Virus record (IMG/VR): IMGVR_UViG_3300046451_001045
Coordinates: 1-59,234 of that record
Length of the DNA: 59,234 nt
Strand: one strand, 5' to 3'
From: a virus
Lineage: Duplodnaviria > Caudoviricetes
Shown here piece by piece: positions 9,978-46,598 of this stretch; position 1 is the stretch's first letter; each line of letters opens with the position of its first letter. The notes under the pieces were generated by a model. It made no database searches. It saw only the letters and a list, made by a program, of their open reading frames with translations, and was not told the origin of the DNA. The translations under genes were made by a program, and so were the position numbers.

Positions 9978-10024
9978 GACTCTAAAGTGAAAAATACCAC
10001 CAGCAAGGTGTTATAAATATAGTT

Positions 10025-24960: not shown

Positions 24961-24972
24961 ATAAATAGTACT

Positions 24973-26448
24973 ATGGGAATAATTACAGAAAAAGTTAATC
25001 GTCACATTCTTATGGAAGCAGATACATCGTCTGCAACTAATACAGAAATGGCCATTTGTTACCACTATAATCTTCAGAGAAGTGCAGATGGTGATGAAGA
25101 AAAGGCAAAGAAAATCTCGGGAATCGATGATAAGAACTTTGCAAAACTAACCCCCGACCTATTAGAGATAGGTGATAAAGTTGCACGAGATATGGGTAAC
25201 AGAGGCCCTATGTTAATTCATAGTGGTGCCGCAACTGCATCAAATAACTTTTATGCTGGTGCATCAGACAAGACACCTAAAGCCGATTTCTTTGGAAACA
25301 GCAATAATAGAATCTCTCTCAAAAAACAAGGTGATGGTGGAAGTGGTGCTCAACTTATGAGTGCAAAGTCTGCCGAAGCAGCTGGAGTGTTTACATCTTC
25401 CATTGCACACTTAGAAGCAAATGAAAGTCAGAGTTTATCAAATAGTAAAGAGTTTAAATCTGCATTAGATATTTTAGAAAAGAAGATGTTAGACTCTGCA
25501 AGAAATGGTATGGTTGTCCAAGCAGGTAAATCAAAAGCATCATTTACAGAATGGTATCTCACTAAAAGTAGTAGATTCCAAGAGTTAAGTAAAAAACATC
25601 CTGCAAAACAGGTTACAGACCATCTAAGAGCAGAGTTGATGTTACTAGGTGTTGCTAGAATGAGTAAAAAATCTTCAGAAAAGGTAATTGCAGGTGTTTC
25701 TTTGATGGACACTAAAGGTTTAACAAAATACCAAGATGAATACCAAGATAATTCAGATGTAAGTATTGGTGATGTTCAAGTAAGTGCAAAACACTTAAAG
25801 AATGTTACTGCAGATAAGTTAACTGCAGATGCAGTAAAGGCCCAAGTTATAGATGTCGTTCAACAGTCCGTAAATGGAACTGCATGGAAAATGGAACTTC
25901 AGAAGTTTTTTGATAATAACGATGCACTTAAGAAGTGGGTAGTGTATGAAGCTGGTTCGGGACTGTTCAAGTTCACTGGTCAAACTGCAACTAAGGGTGA
26001 TTACAATGGTAGTGAAGAATCGGTTGCAAATAAAATCCTAGTGTTTAACGATAGTGGAATTGCAAAAGAATATAGGTTGTTTGATTATGCAATGAGTAAT
26101 CCACAACTTTGTGATGATATAGGTGTGACCTTTAAAGCAAATGGTAGAGATTCTTACCTTGCATTTAGAATACAATCACATGTTGAACATGATATGCCTA
26201 TGTTACAAGAAGAACTAAATAATATCGAATCTGAACTACTACAAGAAGGTTTCTTCGGTGATGTTGCTAAGAAACTTAAATCATTTGTAGAGAAAGCAAA
26301 AAAGGCAATTTGGAAGTTTATAAGTAATATCATAAGTAAAGTTATTGGTAATATAAGAGTCCTTGCAAACAAAGGTATTATTGCATTTAATGAAGCTATG
26401 GGTATAGATATGAATGGAACTGTTAAAATAAAAACCCCAAACTGGTAA
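24973..26448 (+). CDS. Hypothetical late protein, possible PD-(D/E)xK nuclease
   Basis: TPKADF...RISLKK motif; late element 5 nt upstream; amphipathic C-terminal helix. Confidence 0.5.
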   Translation: MGIITEKVNRHILMEADTSSATNTEMAICYHYNLQRSADGDEEKAKKISGIDDKNFAKLTPDLLEIGDKVARDMGNRGPMLIHSGAATASNNFYAGASDKTPKADFFGNSNNRISLKKQGDGGSGAQLMSAKSAEAAGVFTSSIAHLEANESQSLSNSKEFKSALDILEKKMLDSARNGMVVQAGKSKASFTEWYLTKSSRFQELSKKHPAKQVTDHLRAELMLLGVARMSKKSSEKVIAGVSLMDTKGLTKYQDEYQDNSDVSIGDVQVSAKHLKNVTADKLTADAVKAQVIDVVQQSVNGTAWKMELQKFFDNNDALKKWVVYEAGSGLFKFTGQTATKGDYNGSEESVANKILVFNDSGIAKEYRLFDYAMSNPQLCDDIGVTFKANGRDSYLAFRIQSHVEHDMPMLQEELNNIESELLQEGFFGDVAKKLKSFVEKAKKAIWKFISNIISKVIGNIRVLANKGIIAFNEAMGIDMNGTVKIKTPNW

Positions 26449-32693: not shown

Positions 32694-33014
32694 ATGTTCG
32701 GTAAAAAACCAAAACAAATAGACTACAAATACAACGAGGGAGAACTCTTAAAGGAGTTTTCCCAGTATGTAGACTCAACCTATGACCAGCATTACAGTCT
32801 GAACAAGTACCAAGCTACTGAGTTCATTATGGATGCAGGACATGGAGAAGGATTTACCATTGGGAATATTATGAAGTATTCTCAGAGGTATGGAAAGAAG
32901 GGTGGGAAGAATCGTGCCGACCTTTTGAAAGTTATCCATTACGGATTTCTTGCTTTAAATAACCACGATAAAACCCAACTTGCAGAAGCAGGTTACAAAA
33001 AGGAGACTAACTAG
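32694..33014 (+). CDS. Conserved T4-like protein (DUF3310-like)
   Basis: TY.QHY, GF..GN..KY.QRYGKK.G, DL.KV.HY. Confidence 0.8.
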   Translation: MFGKKPKQIDYKYNEGELLKEFSQYVDSTYDQHYSLNKYQATEFIMDAGHGEGFTIGNIMKYSQRYGKKGGKNRADLLKVIHYGFLALNNHDKTQLAEAGYKKETN

Positions 33015-33682
33015 TGATGAAAATTAGTGATAATACAAGAGACGTTCTAAAAAACTTCTCAACCATAAATTCGGGTATACGAGTTAAAACAGGTAACAAG
33101 TTAGAGACCATTTCTAACATGAAAAACATTCTTGCAGTTGCAACTGTGTCTGAGGATTTCCCTCAAGACTTCAGTATCTACAACTTGCCAGAATTCTTAG
33201 GTGCAACATCCTTAATGGAGAACCCCGAATTCAATTTCGGTAGTGCATCATTAAGTATTAACGATGCATATTCAACAATGGATTACCATTATGCCAGTGA
33301 GGGTATGGTAACTGCACCCGAAAAAATTATAACAATGCCTGATACTGAGATTAACTTCGATGTAACAAGTGAATTGTTAGTAGACTTACAGAAAGCCTCA
33401 AGTGTATTAGGTGTGAATGACCTAGTATTGGAAAGTGATGGTACTACTGTATCCTTGACAGTCAAGGACAAGAAGAATGCATCTTCAAACACATTCTCAC
33501 GAGTGGTAGGTGAAGGTGATGGAGTTTCGTATTCAATGAACTTCAAGATAGAGAACCTTAAGATACTTGCAGGAAATTATTCTGTAACAGTATCTTCTAA
33601 AGGTATTTCAAACTTTAAGAACTCTGATATTGATTTAGAGTACTTTATTGCACTAGAACCCGATTCAAAATACGGGTCTTAG
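33014..33682 (+). CDS. gp45: Sliding clamp gp45
   Basis: LKNFSTIN, IY.L.EFL, ENLK...G.Y, YFIALE. Confidence 0.95.
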   Translation: MMKISDNTRDVLKNFSTINSGIRVKTGNKLETISNMKNILAVATVSEDFPQDFSIYNLPEFLGATSLMENPEFNFGSASLSINDAYSTMDYHYASEGMVTAPEKIITMPDTEINFDVTSELLVDLQKASSVLGVNDLVLESDGTTVSLTVKDKKNASSNTFSRVVGEGDGVSYSMNFKIENLKILAGNYSVTVSSKGISNFKNSDIDLEYFIALEPDSKYGS

Positions 33683-33813: not shown

Positions 33814-34761
33814 ATGACAGAAGAGTTTTTATATGTGGAAAAGTATCGTCCACAGAATATCGAAGATACAATCCTACCTAGACAGTACAAAGACCAATTC
33901 AAAGAATTTGTAAAACAAGGAGAGATACCAAATCTCTTACTTAGTGGTTCTGCTGGATGTGGTAAGACAACCATAGCTAAAGCACTCTGTAACGAGCTAG
34001 GTGCAGACTTTATCGTAATCAATGGTAGTGATGAGGGTAGACTCATAGACACCCTTAGAACGAAGATAAAGAACTTTGCGTCCACTATGTCACTACAGGG
34101 TGGGACTAAGGTCGTTATCCTAGATGAAGCCGATTATATGTCTGCAGATTCCGTTCAACCTGCATTAAGAGGATTTATAGAAGAGTTCTCAAGTAACTGT
34201 AGGTTCATATTCACTTGTAACTACAAGAATAGAATTATACCTGCATTACACTCAAGAACAACTGTAATTGATTTCAAGATATCCCCGACAGAGAAACCTA
34301 AACTTGCCATGCAATTCATGAAAAGAGTTAAGACTATCTTGGATATTGAAGGGATTACCTATGATGATAAGGTAGTTGCAGAACTTATTACAAGATTCTT
34401 TCCCGATTTTAGACGTGTATTAAATGAACTTCAGAGATATAGTGTCAGTGGTACAATCGATTCGGGTCTTCTATCATCTTTAACCGAAGAAAAGTTTACT
34501 CCTTTAATAAATATGTTACAGGAAAAGAACTGGGGTGCAATGAGAAAGTGGGTCGGTCAGAATAGTGACCAAGACTTCACATCGTTATATCGTAAAGTGT
34601 TCAATGCACTTGAAGTGCGATTAGAACCACAATCAATACCAGCTGCAGTGTTAGTCATTGCAGACTATCAATACAAATCTGCATTTGCAATGGACTCGGA
34701 GATTAACTTTACTGCATGTCTAACAGAGATTATGAGTGAGTGTAAATTCAAAAATGTTTAA
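33814..34761 (+). CDS. gp44: Clamp loader large subunit gp44
   Basis: EKYRP, GSAGCGKTT, ILDEAD, CN, LHSR, PDFRR. Confidence 0.96.
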   Translation: MTEEFLYVEKYRPQNIEDTILPRQYKDQFKEFVKQGEIPNLLLSGSAGCGKTTIAKALCNELGADFIVINGSDEGRLIDTLRTKIKNFASTMSLQGGTKVVILDEADYMSADSVQPALRGFIEEFSSNCRFIFTCNYKNRIIPALHSRTTVIDFKISPTEKPKLAMQFMKRVKTILDIEGITYDDKVVAELITRFFPDFRRVLNELQRYSVSGTIDSGLLSSLTEEKFTPLINMLQEKNWGAMRKWVGQNSDQDFTSLYRKVFNALEVRLEPQSIPAAVLVIADYQYKSAFAMDSEINFTACLTEIMSECKFKNV

Positions 34762-34858
34762 GTTACAAGAAATGATTGGAAACGCGATTAGTAAATTCTT
34801 TGAGTGGAGTTTCCAAAGAAATGCAAACAAACAGTTTGCCAAGAGGAAAAAGAAATGA
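34754..34858 (+). CDS. Small basic peptide, 34 aa
   Basis: MFKLQEMIGNAISKFFEWSFQRNANKQFAKRKKK; overlaps both neighbours' start/stop. Confidence 0.4.
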   Translation: MFKLQEMIGNAISKFFEWSFQRNANKQFAKRKKK

Positions 34859-35121
34859 GTGAACATGACAAAGTAGTAGATAGACAAAGGAGATTACTCT
34901 CTGCAGAAAAATGGGCAAGGGGTGTTAAGACACTTCATGCACATTCATTAACATCATTATGGTATGATGACAGAGGCAACGATGGTTCGGTAATGGATAC
35001 TGAATACAATGATGGTCTTGTCATGAGAGAGATTAGAGAGACAGGTGAAATTGTTTACTTTGGTAAATCTCTTGAAGGTGATGAACTACTACAACACTTC
35101 GGACAACATACAGGAAAGTAG
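34855..35121 (+). CDS. Hypothetical protein
   Basis: GAGG SD, ATG at 34855, abuts gp62. Confidence 0.65.
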   Translation: MSEHDKVVDRQRRLLSAEKWARGVKTLHAHSLTSLWYDDRGNDGSVMDTEYNDGLVMREIRETGEIVYFGKSLEGDELLQHFGQHTGK

Positions 35122-35514
35122 ATGTCTAAAAGAAATCCATTTGATTTTGTCAAGTCGGTCTCCTATGATAAAAAAGATATCATGGTCGATGCTGTTGAAG
35201 AGAATGCATATGCACCATTCCTAATTAACAAATCATTATCCTACCACCAAGATTCCCTTTTCATGACTAATGAGATGAATAATCGAAGCCACCTCGATAA
35301 TCGTCTCCAATATGTCTTTTTACTAAATACCCTTAGAAAAAGACAAAGGTTTTCCAAATGGGAAAAACCATATCTTAGTAAAAAATTAGAAACGATTAAA
35401 TCCTATTATAAGATATCAACACTTAAAGCAAAAGAATATATGGAAGTGTTATCAGATAAACAGGTTCGTGAATTGAAAAACAGAATGAAAACTGGTGGAC
35501 ATGACAATGAATGA
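35122..35514 (+). CDS. gp62: Clamp loader small subunit gp62
   Basis: PFDFV, Y.PF.IN..LS, NEMN, RKR.RFSKW. Confidence 0.93.
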   Translation: MSKRNPFDFVKSVSYDKKDIMVDAVEENAYAPFLINKSLSYHQDSLFMTNEMNNRSHLDNRLQYVFLLNTLRKRQRFSKWEKPYLSKKLETIKSYYKISTLKAKEYMEVLSDKQVRELKNRMKTGGHDNE

Positions 35515-35920
35515 AAATGAAGACCTTATTAAGGATTTGGTTGAGATAACCTTCCCCGAAAAAGACGACTTTTTAAAAATTAGAGAAACCCTATCTAGGA
35601 TAGGTGTTGCATCGCGTAAAGAGAAAGAACTCTTCCAATCGTGCCATATACTGCACAAACGTGGTAAATACTACATTACTCACTTCAAAGAACTATTCAA
35701 ATTAGATGGTAAACCATCAAGTTTGGAAGAAGGTGACATTGGTAGAAGAAACACTATAGTAACCTTACTTGCACAATGGAAATTAGTTTCCGTAGTCAAC
35801 CCCAATCAAATTAAGGAGCCTACTGCTCCACTATCACAAATTAAAATCATTCCCTTCAAAGAGAAAATAGAGTGGAAATTAACCACTAAATACTCCATCG
35901 GGGGAACGAAGGAATCATAA
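35507..35920 (+). CDS. regA: Translational repressor RegA
   Basis: DDFLKIRETLSRIG, QSCHILHKRG.YYI.HFKELF.LDG. Confidence 0.96.
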   Translation: MNENEDLIKDLVEITFPEKDDFLKIRETLSRIGVASRKEKELFQSCHILHKRGKYYITHFKELFKLDGKPSSLEEGDIGRRNTIVTLLAQWKLVSVVNPNQIKEPTAPLSQIKIIPFKEKIEWKLTTKYSIGGTKES

Positions 35921-35952
35921 ATACTTCTAGTTAACTAAAACAGGAGAAATTT

Positions 35953-36126
35953 ATGTTAGAATTTATTCAGTGGGTTATAGGATGGGTACAAGTGATTCCT
36001 TGGTTAGTAATGGGTGCATCTTTGATTGCAGCTCTTACTCCAACACCAGTCGATGATGGATTGGTGAAACAGGTCTACAAATTGTTGGATTGGGTTGCCT
36101 TAAATATTGGTAAAGCAAAACAATAA
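35953..36126 (+). CDS. Small membrane protein, holin-like, 57 aa; not in the ORF track
   Basis: AGGAG SD; MLEFIQWVIGWVQVIPWLVMGASLIAALTPTPVDD...LDWVALNIGKAKQ. Confidence 0.7.
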   Translation: MLEFIQWVIGWVQVIPWLVMGASLIAALTPTPVDDGLVKQVYKLLDWVALNIGKAKQ

Positions 36127-36160
36127 ATAGTAGTAATTAGTAATAATAACGAGGTATATT

Positions 36161-36421
36161 ATGGAATATATTATAGGATTGATTGTCCTTGCAGCTTTAG
36201 GTTTTCACTTCTTCGGTTCGAAGAATGAGACTACAGTGGCTAAACCAGTGTCAAAATCTACCCCTAAGAAGGTAACTCCACAACCGAAGACTCCTTCAGT
36301 TGCAGAATTAAAGAAATTGACCAAGGTTCAACTACTAGAACTTGCAGATAAAAACAACATTACAGTTAAAAGAAGTGGTTCTAAAGCTGAAGTTGTTAAG
36401 ACAATCTCACAATCTAAATAA
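36161..36421 (+). CDS. Membrane-anchored protein with Rho-N/HeH-like domain
   Basis: N-terminal TM, K/P linker, ELKKLTKVQLLELA.......SKAEVV. Confidence 0.7.
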   Translation: MEYIIGLIVLAALGFHFFGSKNETTVAKPVSKSTPKKVTPQPKTPSVAELKKLTKVQLLELADKNNITVKRSGSKAEVVKTISQSK

Positions 36422-36444
36422 TTAAACAGTACTCAGTATTGTAT

Positions 36445-36471
36445 AAAGAGTGTTTCGGCACTCTTTTTTTT
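36445..36471 (+). terminator. Intrinsic terminator
   Basis: AAAGAGTGT-TTCG-GCACTC-T-run. Confidence 0.85.
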
Positions 36472-36506
36472 AGCCCGTTGCTTAGTGGATTTGCATAAAT
36501 AAACGT

Positions 36507-36803
36507 ATGGAAGAGATATTTGGTTTAATAGGTGAAGTCGGAGCCCCAATTGCAGGGTCAATCGTTATGGGATTTTTTATCTTCATAGTCATTAAGCAGA
36601 TACTTGAGGGTGTTGTTGACAGTATTGGTACACTAACCATGTTCTGTAAATCACTTGAGAATCGTGCTAGAACGATGTCGAACGAGATGATTAAGATTGA
36701 CTTACTAGTGTCAAGTGCATTAGAACTCAGACCCGACATCGATAGGATTGCAAGAGCCGAGAACTTCATCGAAGACGATAAACTCGATGTAAGAAGGGAT
36801 TAA
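36507..36803 (+). CDS. Single-TM coiled-coil protein heading the curli operon
   Basis: VGAPIAG TM helix; late element 5 nt before ATG. Confidence 0.75.
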   Translation: MEEIFGLIGEVGAPIAGSIVMGFFIFIVIKQILEGVVDSIGTLTMFCKSLENRARTMSNEMIKIDLLVSSALELRPDIDRIARAENFIEDDKLDVRRD

Positions 36804-37084
36804 TGGATATTGCATCTCTAATATCCGAATACGGATTTCCAATAGTCATGTCAGTCGGACTTGGCTACTTCATATATTACATATGGTGGTTTGTGGGTGA
36901 GAAACTAGAACCCCAAATTGAGAAGATGCATTTTGCACTAATAAAAGTAATAGACCAAACAAGAATGTTAGACCAAGATTTAATTCGTTTACAACAAAAA
37001 GTAAACGTAGTTCTCGAAATGAAGGAGAACTTAAAAAAAAGAGAGAATGAAAGAAATGCAAAAGATAACAACAGTAATAATTAG
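36803..37084 (+). CDS. Single-TM coiled-coil protein similar to the preceding gene
   Basis: YGFPIV TM helix; DQTRMLDQDLIRL parallels NRARTMSNEMIKI. Confidence 0.75.
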   Translation: MDIASLISEYGFPIVMSVGLGYFIYYIWWFVGEKLEPQIEKMHFALIKVIDQTRMLDQDLIRLQQKVNVVLEMKENLKKRENERNAKDNNSNN

Positions 37085-37517
37085 TGTTTGTTTTGCACTT
37101 AGTGTAAGTGCAGATGAAATAACATTCAAATTTAAGAGTCCTGCTTTTAGTGGGATAGGACAATCTGCACATTACTTGACAGTAGAGAATCAAGAGAAGT
37201 CAAGACGTGATAAGATTAGTCAAGACATAGAAGACAAGATTAAACAAGCAGAGAGAGAAGCAGAGAATACAACGCTTGCAAAATTCCTCAGAAATGTGGA
37301 AAGTAGAATTTATGCTCAGATAGCAAAACAGTTAGTAGAGAATATGTTCTCTAATGGAACTGCATCCGATTACGGAACATTCGCAATCGAAGGTAATACA
37401 GTTACTTATGAGAGAATGGTTGGAGAGGATGGAGTAGACTTCATTCGTTTAACAATCGTTTCTAGTGATGGTACAACAACAACTTTAGATATACCGATAG
37501 GTACAGGAAGTTTCTAA
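37047..37517 (+). CDS. csgF: Curli assembly protein CsgF
   Basis: Signal peptide then ITFKFKSPAFSG, matching the CsgF N-terminal F.F.NP.F.G pattern; ESRIYAQIAKQL; directly upstream of csgG. Confidence 0.85.
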   Translation: MKEMQKITTVIISVCFALSVSADEITFKFKSPAFSGIGQSAHYLTVENQEKSRRDKISQDIEDKIKQAEREAENTTLAKFLRNVESRIYAQIAKQLVENMFSNGTASDYGTFAIEGNTVTYERMVGEDGVDFIRLTIVSSDGTTTTLDIPIGTGSF

Positions 37518-38426
37518 ATGAGAAATTGGGGAATAGTCGGACTTATCGTCTTGCTCACCAGTGGGTGCGCAGCCATTCCATCTATGACCGACAGTTGTGA
37601 AGCTTTTGTTATGTCAAAAGTAGGTGAGTGTATTGAGAAGGCAGAAGTAGTTAAGATACCAACGTATCAAGAACTTGCAAATCTACCACCAGCAAAAGAC
37701 ATGCCAGTGGTTGCAGTATATGCTTTCATGGACAAGACAGGACAACGTAAGAGTAAAGATGGAATTGCATCTTTCTCCACTGCAGTAACACAAGGTGCAG
37801 AATCATTTCTGATTGATGCACTTAAGACTGCAGCGAATGGTAAATGGTTTAGAGTAGTAGAGAGAACAAGTTTGGATGCACTCGTAAGAGAGAGACAGAT
37901 TATTCGTTCTACTAGAGAAGATTTTGCAAATCAGAAAGGTAATGAAGACGCCCCAACGGGTATTCAACCTCTCTTATTTGCAGGCATCCTCTTAGAGGGT
38001 GGGATTATTGGTTATGACAGTAACATTGAAAGTGGCGGTAGAGGTGCAAGATATCTAGGAATAGGTACTTCTGTTTCTTACCGAAGAGATGTTATCACCG
38101 TCTCGTTGAGAGGAATCTCAACTTTAACAGGTGAAATATTATTGAATGTACAGACAACTAAAACAGTTCTCAGTACAGGCGGTGGATACGATGTGTTCAA
38201 ATTTGTGGACATGGATACGAAACTGGTGGAGATGGAAGACGGTAAGGCAGAGAATGAAGGAGTTACGAAAGCAACTCGTTCTGCAATTGAACTTGCAGTC
38301 TTAGAAATGATATACCAAGGACACGATAGAGGTTTTTGGGTAATTACAGATGGACATCGTCACCCTCATGGACAACATGGAAGGAACGAAGGTCATCTAA
38401 ACGGAGAAGAACATGACGAAGAATAA
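37518..38426 (+). CDS. csgG: Curli secretion channel CsgG (lipoprotein)
   Basis: Lipobox TSGC; VAVY.F.DKTGQ.K, FSTAVTQG, WFRVVER..LD.LVRERQIIR, EGGIIGYDSN..SGG.GARYLGIG. Confidence 0.95.
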   Translation: MRNWGIVGLIVLLTSGCAAIPSMTDSCEAFVMSKVGECIEKAEVVKIPTYQELANLPPAKDMPVVAVYAFMDKTGQRKSKDGIASFSTAVTQGAESFLIDALKTAANGKWFRVVERTSLDALVRERQIIRSTREDFANQKGNEDAPTGIQPLLFAGILLEGGIIGYDSNIESGGRGARYLGIGTSVSYRRDVITVSLRGISTLTGEILLNVQTTKTVLSTGGGYDVFKFVDMDTKLVEMEDGKAENEGVTKATRSAIELAVLEMIYQGHDRGFWVITDGHRHPHGQHGRNEGHLNGEEHDEE

Positions 38427-39147
38427 ATTATTACTCATTATGTTAACATTAGGAGTGACCAGTACTTATATGTTTGCAGCTGCAGACGACAATGAAATTT
38501 GGTTACAACAAAGTGGTACTGCATTAACATTGAACATAACTCAAAAAGGTTATGGAAACAAAGTTGGTGGAGATGACTTTAGTGGTTCATCAATCGATAT
38601 GATATTGACTGGTGCTACTAATAGTTTGACATTACTACAATATGGTGATGCCAATAAACTATACGGCCCTTTCATCGCAGATTTGTCTACAGTAAATTTA
38701 TCTTTTACTGGAAACTCAAATGTAATGGATTGGAATGTTGGTTATCAAGGAAGTGCAGATAGTTTAAATATGTTGGGTGTCATCACTGGTGACTCAAACA
38801 CATTTGATATAGACATCGGTTACGATGCATCTGCTGAATACTTAAACTGGGACTTGTCATTGACTGGTTCAAGTAACGTATTCACTACTAAAATTGATTC
38901 CGACAATGCTAAATGGGACTGGACTGTAACAGGTTCGTCAAATGACATCAATACACTTATGGCAGATGCTTCAGATAATTCATTAACTGCAGTTCTAACT
39001 GGTTCTTCAAATGATATCGACATCATTCAGAAGAGTGGTTCAGACACAGGTTGTCCAAGTGGTCAATCATGTAGTGGAATTATTGACGTATCCTTTGTGA
39101 CCTCTAATGCAAATATTGACATCGTTCAAAAAGACGATAACGATTAG
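38413..39147 (+). CDS. Secreted curlin-repeat (CsgA/CsgB-like) beta-solenoid protein
   Basis: Signal peptide; QxGxxN and TGxSN repeats with about 11/22-residue periodicity; C-terminal Cys pair. Confidence 0.75.
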   Translation: MTKNKLLLIMLTLGVTSTYMFAAADDNEIWLQQSGTALTLNITQKGYGNKVGGDDFSGSSIDMILTGATNSLTLLQYGDANKLYGPFIADLSTVNLSFTGNSNVMDWNVGYQGSADSLNMLGVITGDSNTFDIDIGYDASAEYLNWDLSLTGSSNVFTTKIDSDNAKWDWTVTGSSNDINTLMADASDNSLTAVLTGSSNDIDIIQKSGSDTGCPSGQSCSGIIDVSFVTSNANIDIVQKDDND

Positions 39148-40249
39148 TTTTGTACTTATTGGTTTAGTTACGGTAGCAGTAGCCGAACCAATAGGGACAA
39201 TCTCAGAACAAAAAGGTTTTGCTGGATTGCAGAGAGACGGAGAAACGTCTGTTATTTCTGCATCCGAATTTCCTGAAGTGTTGATGTACGACACTGCAAG
39301 AACGGAAAATGGACGAATGAAAATTCAGTTCACTGGTGATGAACAACTTGATTTAACCGAACACTCACTAGTGTTCATTGACGAGGTCTATTACGACCCC
39401 GACCCATCCCTATCTAAAATGTCAATCCGAATGGCACAAGGGACTGCAAGATTCGCTTCAGGATTTGGTGGAAAAATAAAGAAAAGTAACATAAATATAA
39501 CCACACCTACTGCACAGATTGCTGTTCAAGGAACAGACTTCACAACTAGTATTGATGAAATCGGAAGGTCACTGGTAATTTTACTTCCTGATAGATGGGG
39601 AGCTCCTTCAGGAAAAATTACAGTTAGTAATGCTGGTGGAATGGTTATACTGGATGAAGCGTATCAAGCAACGATGGTTTCAACGTATGACGACTCACCA
39701 ACGAAACCTGTAGTGGTTAATGGGATAACACCCAACCTAATTGACAATCTATTCATTGTCAGTCCCCCTGAAGAGGTAAATGAACAGGTTGCAGAAGAAC
39801 AGAGTAAGAATGAGAACGATTCAAACAATGTTCTTGATGTAGATTTCTTAGAGTTTAACGACTTGGAAGATGACTACTTTGAGGATGATGAATTAGAATA
39901 CACGGAACTCGACAGAGATTTACTTGATGTCGATTTTCTACAGGATTTATTAGATGTAGTGTTAGAGATTGACCGAAAGGTTGGTATCGATGCACAACAG
40001 AACACAGCCTTTGGAGTTGTCCGAATTGATGGAACACTTCCAGGCTTTGACAAGGACACCCAATACAATACTATTGTGGACAAGGGTGTAGGTCAGATAT
40101 GGTTCTACAGGGAAGTTAATGGTATTATTTCCATTAAATTACCAATGTTTGCACAAGCAAGTATCAGAACCATAACAGACGAGAAGGAATCACTAATTAA
40201 AGTGGGTGATGGTTCGTCTATAAATATAACCATCACACAACAAAACTAG
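39107..40249 (+). CDS. Exported FecR-domain protein with acidic linker
   Basis: Signal peptide; D..RTE.GR..I.F, G..RF.SG, ITTPTAQIAVQGTDF. Confidence 0.85.
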   Translation: MQILTSFKKTITISFVLIGLVTVAVAEPIGTISEQKGFAGLQRDGETSVISASEFPEVLMYDTARTENGRMKIQFTGDEQLDLTEHSLVFIDEVYYDPDPSLSKMSIRMAQGTARFASGFGGKIKKSNINITTPTAQIAVQGTDFTTSIDEIGRSLVILLPDRWGAPSGKITVSNAGGMVILDEAYQATMVSTYDDSPTKPVVVNGITPNLIDNLFIVSPPEEVNEQVAEEQSKNENDSNNVLDVDFLEFNDLEDDYFEDDELEYTELDRDLLDVDFLQDLLDVVLEIDRKVGIDAQQNTAFGVVRIDGTLPGFDKDTQYNTIVDKGVGQIWFYREVNGIISIKLPMFAQASIRTITDEKESLIKVGDGSSINITITQQN

Positions 40250-40259
40250 GAGATACTAT

Positions 40260-40409
40260 ATGAGTATTTGGAATAAATTCCGAGAATGGCATGAAGGACA
40301 AGTCTATGGATTTCAAAAAGCCTGCCGACTTGACGATTATGAGATGTTTATGATTGCATTTGGTGAAGGAATAGTTATGACATTATTATTTTTATGGTTG
40401 ATATTTTAA
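40260..40409 (+). CDS. Small membrane protein, 49 aa
   Basis: Late promoter at 40219, AGGAG SD; MSIWNKFREWHEGQ...LLFLWLIF. Confidence 0.6.
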   Translation: MSIWNKFREWHEGQVYGFQKACRLDDYEMFMIAFGEGIVMTLLFLWLIF

Positions 40410-40410
40410 A

Positions 40411-41079
40411 ATGAAAGATACTACACAGTTCGGTGGATTCTTATTTTTACTTTCCCTTATAGGATTGTGCTGGACTAGTGTAGCCTTTGCAGACGATAAC
40501 CATGTTCATGTAGAACAGGTTGATAGCGGAGAGGTAGACCTTAACATAACTCAAAAGGGTTACGACAACAAGGTTGATTTCTCATTTGCACACACTGGTA
40601 ATGAATTTAACTTCCTTCAAACAGGAAATGGAAACACTATTACTTGGGTCTCATTTTGGGGTTCAGGAAAAGGTTGGGGTGGTGATGTAGATGGTTCAAA
40701 CAACACCGAGAATGTATCACAAACAGGTGGTGCAACATATGGAAGACATATACTTGGTAACAGTAACACTGTAGACATATATCAAAGCGGAACTCATACA
40801 CATAACTTAGATATACATGTGAATTCTGTTGACCATGACTTACACCAATCGGGTAGTGGAACTCACTATAACCAAACATATTTCTATGGTTCTTCAGATG
40901 GGTCGAATACAAACATAATGCAAAAAGGTTCGGGAAACATGACTTCTCAAATAACATTAACAGGTTCTTATGCTACAACACTTAACTTGTTGCAAGATAG
41001 TTCCACCAATCAATCGTATACACTTACACAAAACTGCGTAACAGCAGGTGGATGTACAGTTTCAATGACACAAGAATGA
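40411..41079 (+). CDS. Secreted curlin-repeat (CsgA/CsgB-like) protein
   Basis: Signal peptide AFA|DDN; QKGYDN, QTGNGN, QSG, QKGSGN repeats; C-terminal CxxxxxC. Confidence 0.8.
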   Translation: MKDTTQFGGFLFLLSLIGLCWTSVAFADDNHVHVEQVDSGEVDLNITQKGYDNKVDFSFAHTGNEFNFLQTGNGNTITWVSFWGSGKGWGGDVDGSNNTENVSQTGGATYGRHILGNSNTVDIYQSGTHTHNLDIHVNSVDHDLHQSGSGTHYNQTYFYGSSDGSNTNIMQKGSGNMTSQITLTGSYATTLNLLQDSSTNQSYTLTQNCVTAGGCTVSMTQE

Positions 41080-41225
41080 ACGACCACTTAAAAACAATAG
41101 ACATGGGATATTTCAAACATCTATTTCATGCATGGACAATGGCATTTGCATTGTTAATACACGGAGTCTTTCCATCAGTATTAACTGATTATGCAAGTGA
41201 TAAGATGTGTGACCACAATGACTGA
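41076..41225 (+). CDS. Small protein, DUF6356-like, 49 aa
   Basis: HL....MGYFKHL..A......LIHGVFP.V....AS pattern; ATGA-coupled. Confidence 0.6.
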   Translation: MNDHLKTIDMGYFKHLFHAWTMAFALLIHGVFPSVLTDYASDKMCDHND

Positions 41226-41376
41226 AGAAAGAGAAAGAGTACTACAACTGGTAATTGATTACCGTAAGAAAAAACGACAACAGAAATGGAGTGCTATTTG
41301 GTCGGGAATCTTAGGAGTGTCTTTAATTCTAGTTGTTCTGTATATATTTTTCTTTGCCTGGCCAACAGTAGTTTAA
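41218..41376 (+). CDS. Small membrane protein
   Basis: Basic N-terminus then one TM helix. Confidence 0.55.
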   Translation: MTEERERVLQLVIDYRKKKRQQKWSAIWSGILGVSLILVVLYIFFFAWPTVV

Positions 41377-41394
41377 AATGACCTAAATAGTAGT

Positions 41395-41877
41395 ATGGCA
41401 TATTCTAAAGAAGTAGTACAAAGATTTGAGGCGGTCTTAGCAGACCCTAAAAAACATTCAGTCGGTTCACTCGACAGAAAGAACCCCAAGGTTGCAACAG
41501 GACTCGCAGGAGCTCCTGCATGTGGTGATGTGATGCAACTTCAACTATTACTCGATGACAACGAAAAGATTATTGACGTTAAGTTTAAGACTTACGGATG
41601 TGGAAGTGCAATTGCATCTTCTTCATTGTTTGTAGACATGATGATGGGTAAGACGATTGCAGAAGCAAAACTAATCAAAGACAAAGACATTGCAGAAGTA
41701 CTTCAACTTCCACCAATCAAATTACATTGTAGTGTACTAGCAGAAGACGCTATCAAACAAGCGATGGTAGACTATGAAACAAAACAGACAGATAACTATA
41801 GTCATCCAATCTTAGACCATTCCTTAATCGGTCATAATAATCCACCACCTCTATCAAAAGAAGATTTCATTGAGTAA
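41395..41877 (+). CDS. iscU: Fe-S cluster scaffold IscU
   Basis: GAPACGDVM, FKTYGCGSAIASSS, LPPIKLHCSVLAEDAI. Confidence 0.96.
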   Translation: MAYSKEVVQRFEAVLADPKKHSVGSLDRKNPKVATGLAGAPACGDVMQLQLLLDDNEKIIDVKFKTYGCGSAIASSSLFVDMMMGKTIAEAKLIKDKDIAEVLQLPPIKLHCSVLAEDAIKQAMVDYETKQTDNYSHPILDHSLIGHNNPPPLSKEDFIE

Positions 41878-41949
41878 TGAACTACAGTAGATACATTAAA
41901 AGAAGATACGGATTTCGTGAGATATACTTAGGACGAACTATAGATATCT

Positions 41950-43845
41950 ATGTATAGTTGGAAATCCGTTTTAGTAACTATTGTGTTACTATTTGGACTT
42001 AAAGTGTGGTCTCCATACATCGTAGAAAACATTCAGTGGTCATACTTTGACACACTCCACCAGTCTCAAGAAAAGGTGTTAGTAGATAACATCATATTAG
42101 TTGATATAGATGAAAAGAGTTTAGATGCATTCGGACAATACCCAATCAAACGTGGAATTTATCGTGACCTGTTACTTAACACTCATTTTAGTAATACCCA
42201 CGTCTTTACTTTTCTCTTTAGTCAACCCGATAGAGACCCGACCCAAGACGAGATACTTGCAGAAGGTTTGGTCAATCGTTTAACCATTCTTGCAGCTGCA
42301 CCAACAATTCAAAAAGATACTGGTTCTGCACCATTCGTAGGTAACTCTACATTTGGGGGTGGAAATCCTCAAGACCATTTGTGGAACTTCTCAGGGATTG
42401 CATCTCCAATCAGGATACTTCAGGACAATACATATGGTGTTGGGGTCACTGTTGCAACACCTAGTGTTACAGGAACACCTAACTTTGACGGGACAACAAG
42501 GTCTATACCCCTTTTAGTTACTGCAAACAATCAAGTATACCCGTCACTTGCACTAGAAACACTTCGTGCATTAAGAGACCAACCTTCGTATCAAACAAAA
42601 ATTACTCCTGAACTTGGAGTGGAATGGGTCAGGATGGGTAGAGACAAACCTATCTCCACCACCCCGACCAGTGATGTAATGATATCCTACTGGAATGAGT
42701 TCCAAAGGATTAGTGCAGTAGACCTACAGGATTCTAATGTTGAAGGTAAGATTCTTGTATGGGGTCTAACTGCGGAGGGTCTGAATAATCCAGTTTCAAC
42801 CCCAGTGGGTGTAATGTATCCTCACGAAGTGCAAGCACACCATATCCAAACCGTCTTGTCAGGAGTTCAAATACAGAAATCCTACTTTCTTGGATTAATT
42901 GGATTTGCTGTTCTTTTGTCAGTAATGATAATGATACTGGTGATGGTCTACAAGCTTCCCACAGCTCTTTCGGGGATAATGAGTCTATTACTCGTAGGAT
43001 TTCAGGTGGGTGGGAGTTATTATATTTGGACTTCAGAGCTCGTTCTTTTCGATACTTTCTATTCATCGTTAGCCTCCTTGTTGGTTTTTGGTCATGCATC
43101 CTTTAACAAATACTATGTAACTTTCCAAGAAAAGCAACAAATAAAGAAGCAGTTCCAAAAGTATTTATCCCCCGATATGATTGAAGAACTACAAAAACAC
43201 CCCGAAAAATTGAAACTTGGTGGAGATAGAAAGGAACTTTCATTCCTCTTCGCAGACATAGTAGGATTTACCCCCATAAGCGAGGCATACATGAAAAACG
43301 ATGACCCCGAGGGATTGGTCTTACTCATCAACAGATTCCTAGATGGAATGTCAAAGATAGTTTTAAAGAATGGTGGTACGATTGATAAGTTCATGGGCGA
43401 CTGTTTAATGGCATGGTGGGGTGCTCCTTTGGATTGTCCGAATCATGCTGAGATGGCAGTTAAATCTGCAATGGAAATAGAAATACTTACAGAACAGATG
43501 AATAGGGACATCAAGGAAGAAGGATTAGACCTTCCACCAGTAGTTATAGGTACTGGGATTAACACAGGTCAATGCATAGTGGGTAATATGGGTTCAGAAG
43601 ATAGGTTTGACTATTCAGTAGTCGGAGATGCAGTTAACCTTGCAGCCAGACTTGAGGTTCAGACTCGAACCTTTGATACACCTATTCTACTATCGGAGTT
43701 CACTTACATGCAACTCGATGAGACTGCATGTTCATTGGTTGATGAGATAACAGTAAAGGGTAAAGAAATACCAGTCAAGGTCTATGCACCATTGTTTGAT
43801 AACGGAAAACGAAAAGAAGTACGAAAACTTCATAAAACCCCTTGA
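41950..43845 (+). CDS. CHASE2-domain membrane class III adenylate cyclase
   Basis: IILVDIDEKSL...GQYP (CHASE2), three TMs, FADIVGFT, IDKFMGD, GINTG...VGNMGS..RFDYSVVGDAVNLAARLE, VKGK. Confidence 0.93.
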   Translation: MYSWKSVLVTIVLLFGLKVWSPYIVENIQWSYFDTLHQSQEKVLVDNIILVDIDEKSLDAFGQYPIKRGIYRDLLLNTHFSNTHVFTFLFSQPDRDPTQDEILAEGLVNRLTILAAAPTIQKDTGSAPFVGNSTFGGGNPQDHLWNFSGIASPIRILQDNTYGVGVTVATPSVTGTPNFDGTTRSIPLLVTANNQVYPSLALETLRALRDQPSYQTKITPELGVEWVRMGRDKPISTTPTSDVMISYWNEFQRISAVDLQDSNVEGKILVWGLTAEGLNNPVSTPVGVMYPHEVQAHHIQTVLSGVQIQKSYFLGLIGFAVLLSVMIMILVMVYKLPTALSGIMSLLLVGFQVGGSYYIWTSELVLFDTFYSSLASLLVFGHASFNKYYVTFQEKQQIKKQFQKYLSPDMIEELQKHPEKLKLGGDRKELSFLFADIVGFTPISEAYMKNDDPEGLVLLINRFLDGMSKIVLKNGGTIDKFMGDCLMAWWGAPLDCPNHAEMAVKSAMEIEILTEQMNRDIKEEGLDLPPVVIGTGINTGQCIVGNMGSEDRFDYSVVGDAVNLAARLEVQTRTFDTPILLSEFTYMQLDETACSLVDEITVKGKEIPVKVYAPLFDNGKRKEVRKLHKTP

Positions 43846-43868
43846 AATTTTAGAAAAAGTCTATATAA
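43841..43868 (+). promoter_or_regulatory. RpoH (sigma32)-like promoter for hsp20
   Basis: CTTGAAA followed about 14 nt later by CTATAT. Confidence 0.55.
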
Positions 43869-43875
43869 TAGTACT

Positions 43876-43951
43876 ATGGTGTTATAAATACCATTGTAAT
43901 GCTCATTAGAGGTTACATAACATAACTTGCTTAATAAAGGAGAAAACTATG
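43876..43951 (+). promoter_or_regulatory. ROSE-like RNA thermometer in the hsp20 5' UTR
   Basis: Two upstream hairpins, then CTTGCT (43926-31) pairing with SD AGGAG (43938-42) with a bulged G. Confidence 0.65.
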
Positions 43952-44386
43952 ACAAGCAGACAGCTCGGAGACTTCGATGTCTTCAATTTCGGGAAATCAT
44001 TCCCATTCGCAATCGGGTTCGACAGAACTCTTCAACTATTAGAACGTGCCAATCAGTCACCGACTAATACAAACTATCCACCTTACAATATTGTAAAACA
44101 CGATGCAGAGAACTTCAGTATCGAACTTGCATTAGCTGGATTTGATAAGAAAGACATCACAATCTCAAAAGAGAAAGAGGTTCTTAATATCGAAGGTAAA
44201 CAGAAGGAAGGGGAAAACCTTGAGTATGTCCATAGAGGACTTGCATCTCGTTCATTCAAAAGAACATTCACACTTGCAGACGATATAATCGTTAAAGGTG
44301 CAGATATGAAGAATGGTATTTTGAGTGTATCTTTGGAAAGGATTGTACCCGAAGAAGATAAACCCCAAGAAATCAAAATTTCTTAA
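43949..44386 (+). CDS. hsp20: Small heat shock protein Hsp20 (IbpA-like)
   Basis: IGFD, NYPPYNI, IELALAGF, HRGLA.RSF.R.F.L, NGIL...L....PEE.KP. Confidence 0.96.
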   Translation: MTSRQLGDFDVFNFGKSFPFAIGFDRTLQLLERANQSPTNTNYPPYNIVKHDAENFSIELALAGFDKKDITISKEKEVLNIEGKQKEGENLEYVHRGLASRSFKRTFTLADDIIVKGADMKNGILSVSLERIVPEEDKPQEIKIS

Positions 44387-44429
44387 AAAACCCCTATTCA
44401 GACATGCTTCATTGTTGTATAATAGAAGC

Positions 44430-45851
44430 ATGTCTGAACTCTATGAAATAATTAAACAAAGTGCAAATCACGATGGCTTACCTATTATTACAGGTAAACA
44501 GTTTGAAGACCTTACTGAAAAATATGGTCGGGAAGAATTCCGTGAACAAGTTGCAAAATACATTGAACAGGAAAGACCACCTTTCCCATTAAAACCCATT
44601 TCCTATGGTAAGATGAAAGATACTTTCATTAGACTTCTAGAGGACGATGTGTGGAGATTCGTAAAACCTAACGAACAGTTAGAACAGGAAGTCGTAGAAA
44701 AATACGATAATTACAAATACCCATACTCAGAATTTGGATTAGGAATGGTCAATGCACCCCCTTCATTTAATGATGCAAGTGATTACTTTATGCAAGACTT
44801 AAGATTGTCTTGTGATTCATATGGTCATAAAGCACCATTGAATGCATTCCGAGATTCAAATGCAAAACAATTGAAATCGGCTCTTGGTGCAATATGGAGA
44901 GGTGTCAATGACATTACTAAAGAAATATCTACAGACGTAGATGGTAATGAAGTTATAAAACTTGTCGGTGGTAAACTAGATGAAGATGCATATAGAACTG
45001 CATTCAGACTTGGTGCCTATATTGCAACACAGTTCAAACCAGTAGTTGCAAAATGTTTCTATGAAATGACTGATGCAAAAACTGTATTAGATACTTCATG
45101 TGGATGGGGAGATAGACTTTGTGGTTTCTATGCAAGTAAGAGAACAACTCATTACATAGGTACAGACCCAAATCCGAACACATTTGTAAACTATAAGAAA
45201 CAATGTATATCTTATGAAACAATTCTTACAGGTAATGCACCAGTAATTACTGAATCAGAAAACTACTTTAAATCCGTTGGTTCAAAGATTGTTGAAATAC
45301 ATAGATGTGGTGCAGAAGATTTAGACTATGATTCACTACCACCAATTGACTGTGCATTCACTTCACCACCTTATTTCTCGACAGAGATATATAACAAGGG
45401 TGGAGAACACGAGGAAGACCAATCATGGTTCAAGTTCAATGAGTATGAGAAGTGGAGAGATGATTTCTTCCTTCCAGTAAGTCAGAAGACTTTTGATTCA
45501 TTATCTGATACAGGTCATATGTTATTAAACATTATGAACCCAACAATTAAAGGTAAAACATACCCTTCATGTGATGAAGTGTGTGACTTACTAAGACCCC
45601 ATTTTAAAGGTCAACTGGGAATGAGAATTATGCAAAGACCACAATCATCTACTAAGTTTCTAGACAAGTGGACAGACGTAAAAGGTGATAGTGATGACAA
45701 TCAAGTGTCAGACAAGGAAGGTATTGATAGAACAGCTATGCAGGATTTCATGAAGAAGTATTACATGGAAAATGTTTGGTACTTTGCAAAAGAAGACAAA
45801 GACCTATTCTTAAAAGTAAGACAAGGACAACTAGATGAGTTTTTCGTATGA
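44430..45851 (+). CDS. DNA amino-methyltransferase (N4C/N6A type)
   Basis: SAM motif LDTSCGWGDRL and catalytic FTSPPYF; start at ATG 44430. Confidence 0.85.
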   Translation: MSELYEIIKQSANHDGLPIITGKQFEDLTEKYGREEFREQVAKYIEQERPPFPLKPISYGKMKDTFIRLLEDDVWRFVKPNEQLEQEVVEKYDNYKYPYSEFGLGMVNAPPSFNDASDYFMQDLRLSCDSYGHKAPLNAFRDSNAKQLKSALGAIWRGVNDITKEISTDVDGNEVIKLVGGKLDEDAYRTAFRLGAYIATQFKPVVAKCFYEMTDAKTVLDTSCGWGDRLCGFYASKRTTHYIGTDPNPNTFVNYKKQCISYETILTGNAPVITESENYFKSVGSKIVEIHRCGAEDLDYDSLPPIDCAFTSPPYFSTEIYNKGGEHEEDQSWFKFNEYEKWRDDFFLPVSQKTFDSLSDTGHMLLNIMNPTIKGKTYPSCDEVCDLLRPHFKGQLGMRIMQRPQSSTKFLDKWTDVKGDSDDNQVSDKEGIDRTAMQDFMKKYYMENVWYFAKEDKDLFLKVRQGQLDEFFV

Positions 45852-46159
45852 CAGAATTATTTGAGAACAAAGTGTACAGAGTAGTTGAGAATCCTCATGA
45901 TGAAAATGCAGGGATTGAGTTAACTGGTGGAGAATGGGACGGACTGGTTTATCAATATGGAAAGGTTCAATTCAAAGATGGTACACCCGAAATTAATTTC
46001 AAAAGAACCATAAGAAGATTCCCAAAAGGGATGGAGAACAGTGAAATCAACTTTGAAGAATTACTAAATAACAGTGAGTTAAATACATTAATGGGTGACA
46101 TTCTAGTAGAAGTCATGCAAGAACAAATAAGGAAAGAGAATGAACAAAGAGATACTTAA
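45848..46159 (+). CDS. Conserved hypothetical T4-like protein
   Basis: G....YQYGKV.F...GDIL motifs. Confidence 0.7.
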   Translation: MTELFENKVYRVVENPHDENAGIELTGGEWDGLVYQYGKVQFKDGTPEINFKRTIRRFPKGMENSEINFEELLNNSELNTLMGDILVEVMQEQIRKENEQRDT

Positions 46160-46598
46160 AGAACAAATCAAACGTCACGAAGGTGAAGTACTAGAAGTCT
46201 ATGCAGATTCACTAGGATACTTAACACTAGGTGTTGGACATCTTATCAAAGAAGGTGATGCAGAACACGGACAACCCGCTGGAACTCCAGTGAGTCAAGA
46301 AACTGTAGATGCATACTATGAAGATGACTTCGACAAACATGTCGATGAAGCAATTCATGTATTCGAATCAAAAGGTGGAGAGAATTTCTATGACCTTCCC
46401 GAAGACATTCAACACGTTCTAGTCAACATGACATTCAACTTAGGTGGAGGTCGTTTCGGTAAATTTAACAACATGTGGAAAGGTGTTGTATCTGCAGACT
46501 GGGAAAAGGTTGCAGTAGAAATGGAAGACTCTAAGTGGTTCGGACAAGTTGGTAGACGTTCAGTAGAACTACAAGAACAGGTACGAAACTGTGCCTAG
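46140..46598 (+). CDS. Lysozyme, GH24 (T4 lysozyme-like)
   Basis: HEG....Y.D.LGY.T.GVGHL, NM.FNLG, DSKW..QV.RR. Confidence 0.93.
   Translation: MNKEILKEQIKRHEGEVLEVYADSLGYLTLGVGHLIKEGDAEHGQPAGTPVSQETVDAYYEDDFDKHVDEAIHVFESKGGENFYDLPEDIQHVLVNMTFNLGGGRFGKFNNMWKGVVSADWEKVAVEMEDSKWFGQVGRRSVELQEQVRNCA

Follow-up and report, generated by a model that had tools for sequence, protein, structure and literature searches.

We have analyzed a block of genes in the viral record IMGVR_UViG_3300046451_001045, the whole of which (59,234 bases, judged to be about 33% complete) was taken as the window. The block is almost certainly a further copy of the curli cassette (viral type VIII secretion) already published for marine phages of the pelagiphage type. 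It contains genes for the pore proteins CsgF and CsgG, for two predicted exported repeat proteins that we term RepA and RepB, for a FecR-domain protein, for a cyclase with a CHASE2 sensor, and for small proteins that include TM1 and TM2, named for their predicted transmembrane (TM) segments. As to function, we consider it moderately probable that curli-like fibers are displayed late in infection through the CsgG/CsgF pore, and that this display is coupled in some way to an arm comprising the FecR protein and the cyclase. The genes of the cassette are as follows.

36507–36803, + strand: TM1, 98 amino acids, one N-terminal hydrophobic helix and a charged tail that is probably a coiled coil (phrog_18771, E = 8.4e-24)
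36803–37084, + strand: TM2, 93 amino acids, a paralogue of TM1 with one N-terminal hydrophobic stretch (phrog_18771, E = 2.5e-26)
37047–37517, + strand: csgF, 156 amino acids, signal-peptide-like N-terminus (Pfam CsgF, PF10614, 49.5 bits against a cut-off of 25.8; phrog_35372)
37518–38426, + strand: csgG, a lipoprotein of 302 amino acids (Pfam CsgG, PF03783, 165 bits against a cut-off of 20.8)
38413–39147, + strand: RepA, 244 amino acids, a predicted exported curlin-like repeat protein, probably a degenerate curlin
39107–40249, + strand: FecR-domain protein, 380 amino acids (Pfam FecR, PF04773, 35.5 bits against a cut-off of 24, residues 62–153; phrog_37870, E = 1.2e-64)
40260–40409, + strand: open reading frame (ORF) of 49 amino acids with a hydrophobic C-terminus, conserved in closer relatives only
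40411–41079, + strand: RepB, 222 amino acids, a curlin-like repeat protein predicted to be exported, closer to the canonical form than RepA and with invariant histidines
41052–41225, + strand: DUF6356 gene, inserted in this sub-clade
41191–41376, + strand: small membrane-protein ORF, inserted in this sub-clade
41395–41877, + strand: NifU/IscU gene, inserted in this sub-clade
41950–43845, + strand: class III adenylate/guanylate cyclase with a CHASE2 sensor, 631 amino acids (phrog_35576, E = 3.8e-163), the conserved last gene of the cassette

The initial annotation of this DNA had described an operon running from a late element through the small membrane proteins, the pore genes and the FecR gene to the second repeat gene. 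All of these genes were found where it had placed them, judged from the ORFs and from Pfam; they are co-oriented, and most of them overlap or abut. TM1 and TM2 overlap by 1 nt, TM2 and csgF by 38 nt, csgG and RepA by 14 nt, and RepA and the FecR gene by 41 nt. The end of the block, which had been set at 41079, has to be moved, because the unit continues to the CHASE2 cyclase at 41950–43845.

Both pore proteins are readily recognized. The match of CsgF to its Pfam profile (E = 5.9e-13) covers positions 4–132 of 132, and the signal peptide is followed by a T-F-x-F motif, as in CsgF of Escherichia coli. That of CsgG (E = 1.8e-48) covers positions 5–206 of 210, and comparison by BLASTP with CsgG of E. 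coli K-12 gives 39% identity (E = 8e-54). On reading the sequence, the lipobox L-T-S-G-C (residues 13–17) is seen to align with L-L-S-G-C of the E. coli protein, the Cys included. The channel of E. coli CsgG is constricted by Tyr, Asn and Phe residues. With these as the reference, the constriction loop of the window protein reads K..SF where that of E. coli reads Y..NF; thus Phe is kept, Asn is replaced by Ser and Tyr by Lys. The protein ends in a His-rich tail (G-H-R-H-P-H..., residues 277–302, encoded at 38346–38423), and of 60 distinct homologues 41, the window protein among them, carry a tail of the HRHPH type; it is absent from CsgG of Pelagibacter phage HTVC008M (KC465899) and Methylophilales phage Melnitz (MZ577097). 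This tail and the invariant His residues of RepB might bind metal. A relative with 43% identity to the window CsgG was also seen in OR851715.1, an unannotated sequence of 1,499 bp assigned to Salmonella phage S.Kent 1-2-1, which is probably a fragment of host csgG.

RepA and RepB begin with Sec-type N-termini that read as cleavable signal peptides. The two proteins are paralogues, related by BLASTP with E = 7e-9 and 32% identity over 204 residues, and by hhalign with a probability of 97.7%. Their metagenomic relatives at E ≤ 1e-3 number 703 and 364 clusters. The Pfam curlin repeat family (Curlin_rpt, PF07012) is matched at E ≤ 0.01 by 11 of 29 selected homologues of RepB and by 5 of 27 selected homologues of RepA. 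A search of 1.84 billion representatives with the RepB profile returned 484 proteins at E ≤ 1e-3. Among 41 distant relatives chosen from these, 24 match Curlin_rpt at E ≤ 1e-3, and 23 score at or above the cut-off of the family. Alignment by hhalign with CsgA of E. coli K-12 gave E values of 2.1e-4 and 2.5e-4, with a probability of only 43–46%, the aligned region being the repeat L-x-I-x-Q-x-G-x-G-N.

The curlin kernel has been defined as N/S-x-h-x-h-x-Q (Sleutel et al., 2023; PMC10192328). RepB contains seven kernel-like heptads, a number reached by none of 2000 shuffled sequences. RepA has three strict N-x-h-x-h-x-Q kernels (equaled in 2 of 2000 shuffles) together with six G-x-[GS]-N turns (0 of 2000). 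Under the same pattern CsgA and CsgB of E. coli have 10 and 7 kernels. The sequences repeat with a lag of 21 residues in RepB (z = 4.4) and 26 residues in RepA (z = 3.6), and the invariant columns of both families are mostly Asn, Gln and Gly. Both families are closed by a C-terminal Cys-x5-Cys pair, and that of RepB has several invariant His residues, which are unusual for curlins. These comparisons show RepA and RepB to be divergent members of the curlin-repeat family. We also note that 5 of the 41 distant relatives of RepB, proteins of 430–455 amino acids, carry a PA14 domain on the N-terminal side of the curlin-like part.

The cassette is strictly linked in related DNA. IMG/VR was scanned with the window CsgG, giving 123 confirmed relatives among 124 matched stretches. 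The best 80 were kept (59–100% identity to the window CsgG), several of them near-duplicates, and they therefore sample the relatives without amounting to an unbiased survey. When the window proteins were mapped onto all reading frames, a single gene order was found at all of the related loci. Counting those loci with enough DNA to be informative, TM1, TM2 and CsgF were each present in 78 of 78, RepA in 70 of 70, the FecR protein in 56 of 56, RepB in 49 of 49 and the cyclase in 35 of 35. NifU is more mobile, and in other clades it is either missing or, at 12 loci, placed immediately before TM1. The survey of synteny that had been suggested earlier thus returns the same order in the related IMG/VR loci and in HTVC008M and Melnitz. 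When 185,579 species genomes were searched with the RepB alignment, 58 pattern matches were obtained, from which two loci were confirmed. Both are myophage-like contigs within metagenome-assembled genomes, and each contains the cassette in full. At that sensitivity the search revealed no bacterial source of the RepB family. In one of the two (NHBP01000091.1, from a Planctomycetaceae bin) the RepA and cyclase genes are broken up among several frames, and in the other (JAAXIF010000105.1, from a Sphingobacteriales bin) the cassette is accompanied by gp62 and RegA. Both contigs have the appearance of myophage DNA that has been binned with bacteria.

Two elements precede the first gene.

36445–36471, + strand: intrinsic-terminator-like hairpin followed by a T-run (called at 36445–36466; 9-bp stem, 4-nt loop), closing the upstream gene (36161–36421)
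36494–36501, + strand: putative late promoter motif of the T4 type, CATAAATA, separated by 5 nt from the ATG of TM1 at 36507

A late element had been proposed at this place, and it was compared with the T4-type late element TATAAATA. The sequence CATAAATA is present, and the window also contains a gene for a gp55-type sigma factor. Over the whole window ATAAATA is counted 26 times, the expectation being 19.8 ± 4.3. It is not over-represented, and as lone evidence the motif would therefore count for little; its significance derives from a position that is fixed across related loci, and not from the count within the window. Within the last 60 nt before the start of TM1, ATAAATA is found in 64 of the 80 related loci, lying at exactly 12 nt in 63 of them and at 13 nt in one. 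CTAAATA takes its place at this position in two others. In several of the loci without ATAAATA before TM1, NifU directly adjoins that gene, and with the start assignments made here neither HTVC008M nor Melnitz has ATAAATA at the fixed position. Transcription from T4 late promoters begins 6–7 nt past the motif, and a spacing of 12 nt should therefore lead to a leaderless or near-leaderless late mRNA. This arrangement before TM1 is a fixed one and probably leaderless. The identical 12-nt spacing from ATAAATA to a start is observed at the portal gene (10013–10025) and at the ORF beginning at 24973 (24961–24973). There is an additional ATAAATA at 40220–40226, inside the 3′ end of the FecR gene and 40 nt ahead of the 49-amino-acid ORF, which could be an internal late promoter or a chance occurrence.

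The cassette is also present in RNA libraries. Fourteen metatranscriptome runs from seven studies contain 20–51% of the words sampled from 36400–44000, and contigs assembled from four runs (three studies) span csgF-csgG-RepA, the FecR gene, and RepB to NifU. On the upstream side contigs have their ends at 36421, 36447 and 36471. The first base of one contig is 36507 itself, which we take as a hint and not as a mapped start of transcription. The region 36472–36506 and most of 42.6–43.8 kb are uncovered in the runs examined, such gaps between contigs being uninformative. Since RNA libraries may hold DNA, the contigs demonstrate presence and cannot prove transcription.

From these observations we envisage the following scheme. 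The late sigma factor of the phage would transcribe the block late in infection from CATAAATA ahead of the first gene. The lipoprotein CsgG would form a channel in the outer membrane into which CsgF plugs from the outside. RepA and RepB, exported by the Sec pathway and predicted to form β-solenoids with ladders of Asn, Gln and Gly, would cross CsgG in an unfolded state and stack into curli-like fibers on the surface of the infected cell. The FecR-domain protein in the periplasm and the CHASE2 receptor cyclase may be linked as a sensing arm, with a cyclic nucleotide as its product. Aggregation of cells, masking of receptors and defense against grazing, suggested in the initial annotation, would be possible benefits of such fibers. 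The earlier suggestion of a pore encoded together with its cargo is thus retained as the best-supported reading, given the Sec-type N-termini, the relationship to curlins and the linkage to csgG, but its premise of novelty is outdated (see below).

A number of points weigh against such fibers, and to the one already given (the nature of the RNA libraries) we add those that follow. In the profile searches, of which those for CsgG, CsgF and the curlin repeat had been proposed in the initial annotation, CsgG, CsgF and FecR exceed their Pfam cut-offs, but that of Curlin_rpt is reached by neither repeat protein. RepB scores 14.5 bits (E = 0.034) against the cut-off of 20.7, and RepA gives no match at E ≤ 0.1. 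The NCBIfam equivalog models for CsgA and CsgB return 16–22 bits on RepA and RepB, their cut-offs being 160–165. For this reason we do not file the two proteins as CsgA or CsgB, but only as divergent curlin-like relatives; the earlier description of two curlin-repeat proteins holds, through distant relatives and kernels, as to their family. The Gln ladder is largely lost from RepA, most of whose repeats have no Gln. No match to the CsgE or CsgC profiles was found across the six frames of the 59-kb record, and nothing resembling CsgD was found among the cassette ORFs in the Pfam scan, in agreement with what had been noted before. Neither a CsgE-like gate nor a chaperone of the CsgC/H type was thus found in the record. 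Finally, Buchholz et al. (2022; PMC9004378) observed no clumping of cells infected with Melnitz.

AlphaFold2 models of RepA and RepB are all-β, with strand-turn-strand units and two long strands per approximately 22 residues. The mean predicted local distance difference test (pLDDT) scores are 74.4 for RepA and 76.8 for RepB, with a predicted TM-score of 0.71 for each. These are models of middling confidence, calculated from shallow alignments. In structural comparison by VIA-align, CsgA of Pontibacter korlensis (8c50_A) is the first match to RepA (Z = 16.0, 195 residues aligned, 17% identity, root-mean-square deviation 9.1 Å), followed closely by 1vh4 (Z = 15.8). For RepB the same CsgA is third (Z = 14.5), and E. 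coli CsgA (8enq_A) gives Z = 10.1. CsgA has the highest sequence identity in the match lists of both proteins. Nevertheless the CsgA matches are tied with SufD-type and other β-helices at a deviation of about 9 Å, and β-solenoids are described as common among non-fiber proteins (PMC10192328). A Foldseek search of the two models against the Protein Data Bank (PDB) found nothing at E ≤ 1e-3, only weak rows for pectate lyase and SufD, and profile searches of the PDB sequences gave no match at E ≤ 1. Modeling of the repeat proteins, which had been put forward as a check, thus provides paired strands and CsgA near the top of the lists. Because the CsgA matches are tied with SufD-type helices, the evidence from the fold is compatible with a curlin but not specific for one.

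Folds of the β-helix type are common in tail spikes, which occur among the structural matches of RepA and RepB, and the expression signal of the cassette is late. It could be proposed on these grounds that the repeat proteins are structural components of the virion, as fiber or decoration proteins, whose link to csgG is incidental. We regard this as extremely improbable. The N-termini of both proteins resemble cleavable signal peptides, their genes lie outside the structural module at 2.6–17 kb, and neither was ever found apart from csgG in the loci examined. Moreover, homologues are reported from podophages, which have unrelated virions (PMC9599517).

We return to the display of fibers, and to the genes that might be coupled to it. 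The FecR-domain protein comprises a signal-peptide-like N-terminus, the FecR domain, an acidic linker and a conserved C-terminal domain. Since it has a signal-peptide-like start in place of an anti-sigma N-terminal domain, it is not a FecR-type anti-sigma factor. The protein ends (residues 373–379, 40223–40243) in a conserved I-x-I-x-Q strand, here N-I-T-I-T-Q-Q, which fits the curlin kernel. A single kernel in this protein is not above chance (173 of 2000 shuffles), and its columns are invariant in 17 homologues. This strand might dock on the end of a fiber, or the protein might share its route of export. In the cyclase, the CHASE2 domain (103.8 bits, E = 1.4e-29, residues 10–324) and the Guanylate_cyc domain (66.8 bits, E = 2.5e-18, residues 429–606) are both above their Pfam cut-offs, and hydrophobic stretches can be read at approximately 312–385, between the two domains. 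Co-folding of CHASE2 (residues 22–312) with FecR (residues 27–222), using alignments of 17 rows and run with controls absent, gave a score of 0.00, which is uninformative either way.

There are bacterial precedents for this pair of proteins. An exported FecR-domain protein is encoded beside a CHASE2 sensor in the Burkholderia "BiofilmReg" operon, a module that has been linked to the control of biofilms (PMC5192318). The FecR-domain protein SMc02177 of Sinorhizobium meliloti is described as a target of the cyclic AMP regulator Clr, for which cyclic AMP comes from cyclases that include the CHASE2 cyclase CyaD1 (PMC5498481). The window resembles both in encoding an exported FecR-domain protein together with a membrane protein having a periplasmic CHASE2 domain. 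In Burkholderia the output is through a histidine kinase, and LysM is found in the FecR protein as well (PMC5192318), whereas in the window the output is a class III cyclase; and unlike either bacterial pair, the window has curlin genes between the two.

These precedents suggest a role as a trans-envelope sensor, with a cyclic nucleotide as the main output, in which the curlin-like proteins, exposed at the surface or secreted, and the periplasmic FecR protein would pass an outside signal (for example a second phage, contact with a cell, or a metal) to the CHASE2 cyclase, which would then re-program the infected cell. The presence of the FecR protein and the cyclase at every locus that reaches far enough is as this explanation would have it, and the kernel-like strand at the end of the FecR protein would provide a connection. 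Contact between the parts is unsupported, however, and a sensor does not require two multi-repeat solenoid proteins or CsgF. In addition, the versions found in podophages are reported often to be without the cyclase and the second curlin gene (PMC9599517). Sensing as the main function is in our view unlikely.

The small proteins TM1 and TM2 raise another possibility. In the protein atlas they fall, apart from their own viral clusters, only near YvrJ and BhlA-holin clusters at values below 0.9. For TM2 the nearest named clusters are YvrJ and Holin_BhlA, at 0.84–0.88, which are leads only, and there is a weak match to a holin phrog (E = 0.0087). A role for phage CsgG and CsgF in the timing of lysis has been proposed by Buchholz et al. 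(2022; PMC9004378). In such an explanation CsgG/CsgF would be a repurposed pore, acting as a gated outer-membrane channel or in the manner of a pinholin or secretin, TM1 and TM2 would act in the manner of holins or antiholins, and the repeat proteins would be accessory. Small proteins of about 95 residues with one TM helix and a coiled-coil tail would suit this, and so would the position of the cassette behind a late motif, a lysozyme gene 2.3 kb downstream (46140–46598), the retention in CsgG of just one of the three constriction residues, and the cultures of Melnitz in which clumping was not seen (PMC9004378). The holin-like signals are, however, below any reliable threshold, and holins act at the inner membrane whereas CsgG channels reside in the outer membrane. 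Nor does lysis timing explain why two exported curlin-family proteins and CsgF should be retained at every locus. We therefore judge it rather unlikely.

It is also conceivable that these functions are combined, so that the cassette would be a late trans-envelope signaling machine. Through curlin-like proteins displayed by CsgG/CsgF and through the FecR protein, whose last strand resembles half of a curlin repeat, the CHASE2 cyclase would be informed of a metal or of some event outside the cell; TM1 and TM2 would be holin-like and made from a leaderless late transcript, and fiber display, cyclic-nucleotide signaling and lysis timing would be coupled. We think it quite unlikely that all of this is correct.

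The genes corresponding to TM1 and TM2 have been labeled as histidine kinases in PMC9599517, and we have examined this assignment. The proteins are shorter than 100 amino acids. Neither has a kinase domain, including HisKA and HATPase_c, in Pfam at E ≤ 0.1, nor any match in NCBIfam, and TM1 belongs to no Pfam family. TM1 has no conserved His, every column of the alignment having at most 2% His across 52 distinct homologues. In TM2 one column is 72% His, and HTVC008M and Melnitz lack that residue. With no conserved phospho-accepting His, a histidine kinase was rejected for both proteins, and on the features of their sequences the label should be corrected.

A further proposal is that an ungated CsgG pore would admit cofactors, iron chelates or larger nutrients into the cell, an idea raised in PMC7029224 and PMC9599517. 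A CsgE-type gate was not found in the six frames of the record, the block contains a FecR domain and a NifU/IscU gene, and the His-rich tail of CsgG and the invariant His of RepB might bind metal. But the name FecR denotes a fold only, and NifU shifts its position between clades and is absent from several. Import moreover leaves CsgF and both curlin-like proteins with nothing to do, and we consider it very unlikely to be the function of the cassette.

Systems of this kind have been described before. According to Wittmers et al. (2022; mSystems 7:e01522-21, PMC9599517), genes for CsgA/B-type fibers, FecR, a second CsgA/B and adenylate cyclase occur in podo- and myo-pelagiphages. The order reported there (one or two small proteins, CsgF, CsgG, a CsgA/B-like protein, FecR, a second CsgA/B-like protein and the cyclase) is that of the window. 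The two accounts agree also in the absence of CsgC, CsgD and CsgE, in the occurrence in marine myo- and podophages and in detection in metatranscriptomes. They differ in the small upstream proteins, which in the window have no kinase domain or conserved His, and in the genes particular to the window sub-clade, with DUF6356, a small TM ORF and NifU before the cyclase and the ORF of 49 amino acids before RepB. Superinfection defense, aggregation and import are discussed in the same paper. Two earlier papers, from Zaragoza-Solas et al. (2020; PMC7029224) and from Buchholz et al. (2022; PMC9004378), described csgA and csgB as missing, and "sibling capture", uptake or lysis timing were proposed in them. 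The initial annotation had supposed that curlin subunits were not found in such phages, which fits the latter two papers, but curlin genes are listed in PMC9599517 and in GenBank. Because the cassette, fiber genes included, was already in print, the claim of novelty fails. Among the papers listed in a literature search for experimental work on phage curli since 2022, there was none beyond two already known; others may exist.

The phages HTVC008M and Melnitz have the same synteny of eight genes when mapped with profiles. GenBank labels the homologues in HTVC008M "curlin-associated protein, curlin minor subunit CsgB" and gives two genes for a "curlin associated repeat protein" flanking the FecR gene of Melnitz; FecR and cyclase genes are likewise already named in these entries. 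The relationship to the window is nonetheless distant. CsgG is 47% identical, DNA matches extend over 12% of the query at 67% identity, and the locus in these phages follows the gene for single-stranded DNA-binding protein, whereas that of the window follows regA.

Compared with the csgBAC/csgDEFG system of E. coli K-12 (NC_000913.3), the window has in common the lipoprotein channel CsgG (39% identity), CsgF, strands of the form N/S-x-h-x-h-x-Q, and G-x-G-N turns. Unlike the E. coli system it has no matches to CsgE, CsgC or CsgD. Its subunits are longer (approximately 195–220 mature residues), with irregular repeats of 21–26 residues and a C-terminal Cys-x5-Cys, and RepB has invariant His. The window genes are also arranged in one co-directional operon, predicted to be late, together with the FecR protein and the cyclase.

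The remainder of the window is that of an uncultured marine phage, a T4-like myophage by PHROG and Pfam scans. G+C content is even along it at 0.35–0.40, nearly all of the genes are on the + strand, and no tRNA genes were found. An Rfam scan of the stretch 35900–44500 returned zero matches at E ≤ 0.1. The principal landmarks are listed below.

2.6–17 kb: structural module with neck, tail proteins, terminase, sheath, tube, portal, prohead protease, scaffold and major head protein
After the structural module: UvsY, helicase, gp55-type late sigma factor, gp47/46-type nuclease, CobS-like ATPase and clamp
21575–22162: gp55-type late sigma factor gene
33014–33682: clamp
33814–35514: clamp loader
35495–35920: RegA
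46140–46598: phage lysozyme, 2.3 kb downstream of the cassette
47109–49622: DNA polymerase, followed by UvsX and the replicative helicase

Since the cassette lies between regA and the DNA polymerase gene, it is located in the replication module. Directly after the cyclase is a gene for an Hsp20/α-crystallin protein (43949–44386; Pfam E = 2.7e-18), preceded by a near-consensus sigma-70-like site (43842–43869, 11 of 12) and by ATAAATA at 43884. In two RNA runs the summed depth of contigs is greater over this gene than elsewhere in the stretch.

The case for phage curli was made in print between 2020 and 2022, and the window provides another member. What we add is modest: RepA and RepB are placed in the curlin family on independent evidence, and to this come the removal of the name histidine kinase from TM1 and TM2, an arrangement of the late promoter that is fixed and probably leaderless, the extent of the block to the CHASE2 cyclase, and a pointer to the bacterial FecR/CHASE2 pairs. 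Hosts such as SAR11 and OM43 are not known to have curli genes of their own. Phage-borne curli systems are widespread in the ocean, and their genes are reported from all 65 GOV2.0 stations and from metatranscriptomes (PMC9599517). If the fibers are indeed produced, infected cells, which are among the most abundant on Earth, would acquire a sticky surface that they otherwise lack, and aggregation, superinfection and the export of carbon could all be affected.

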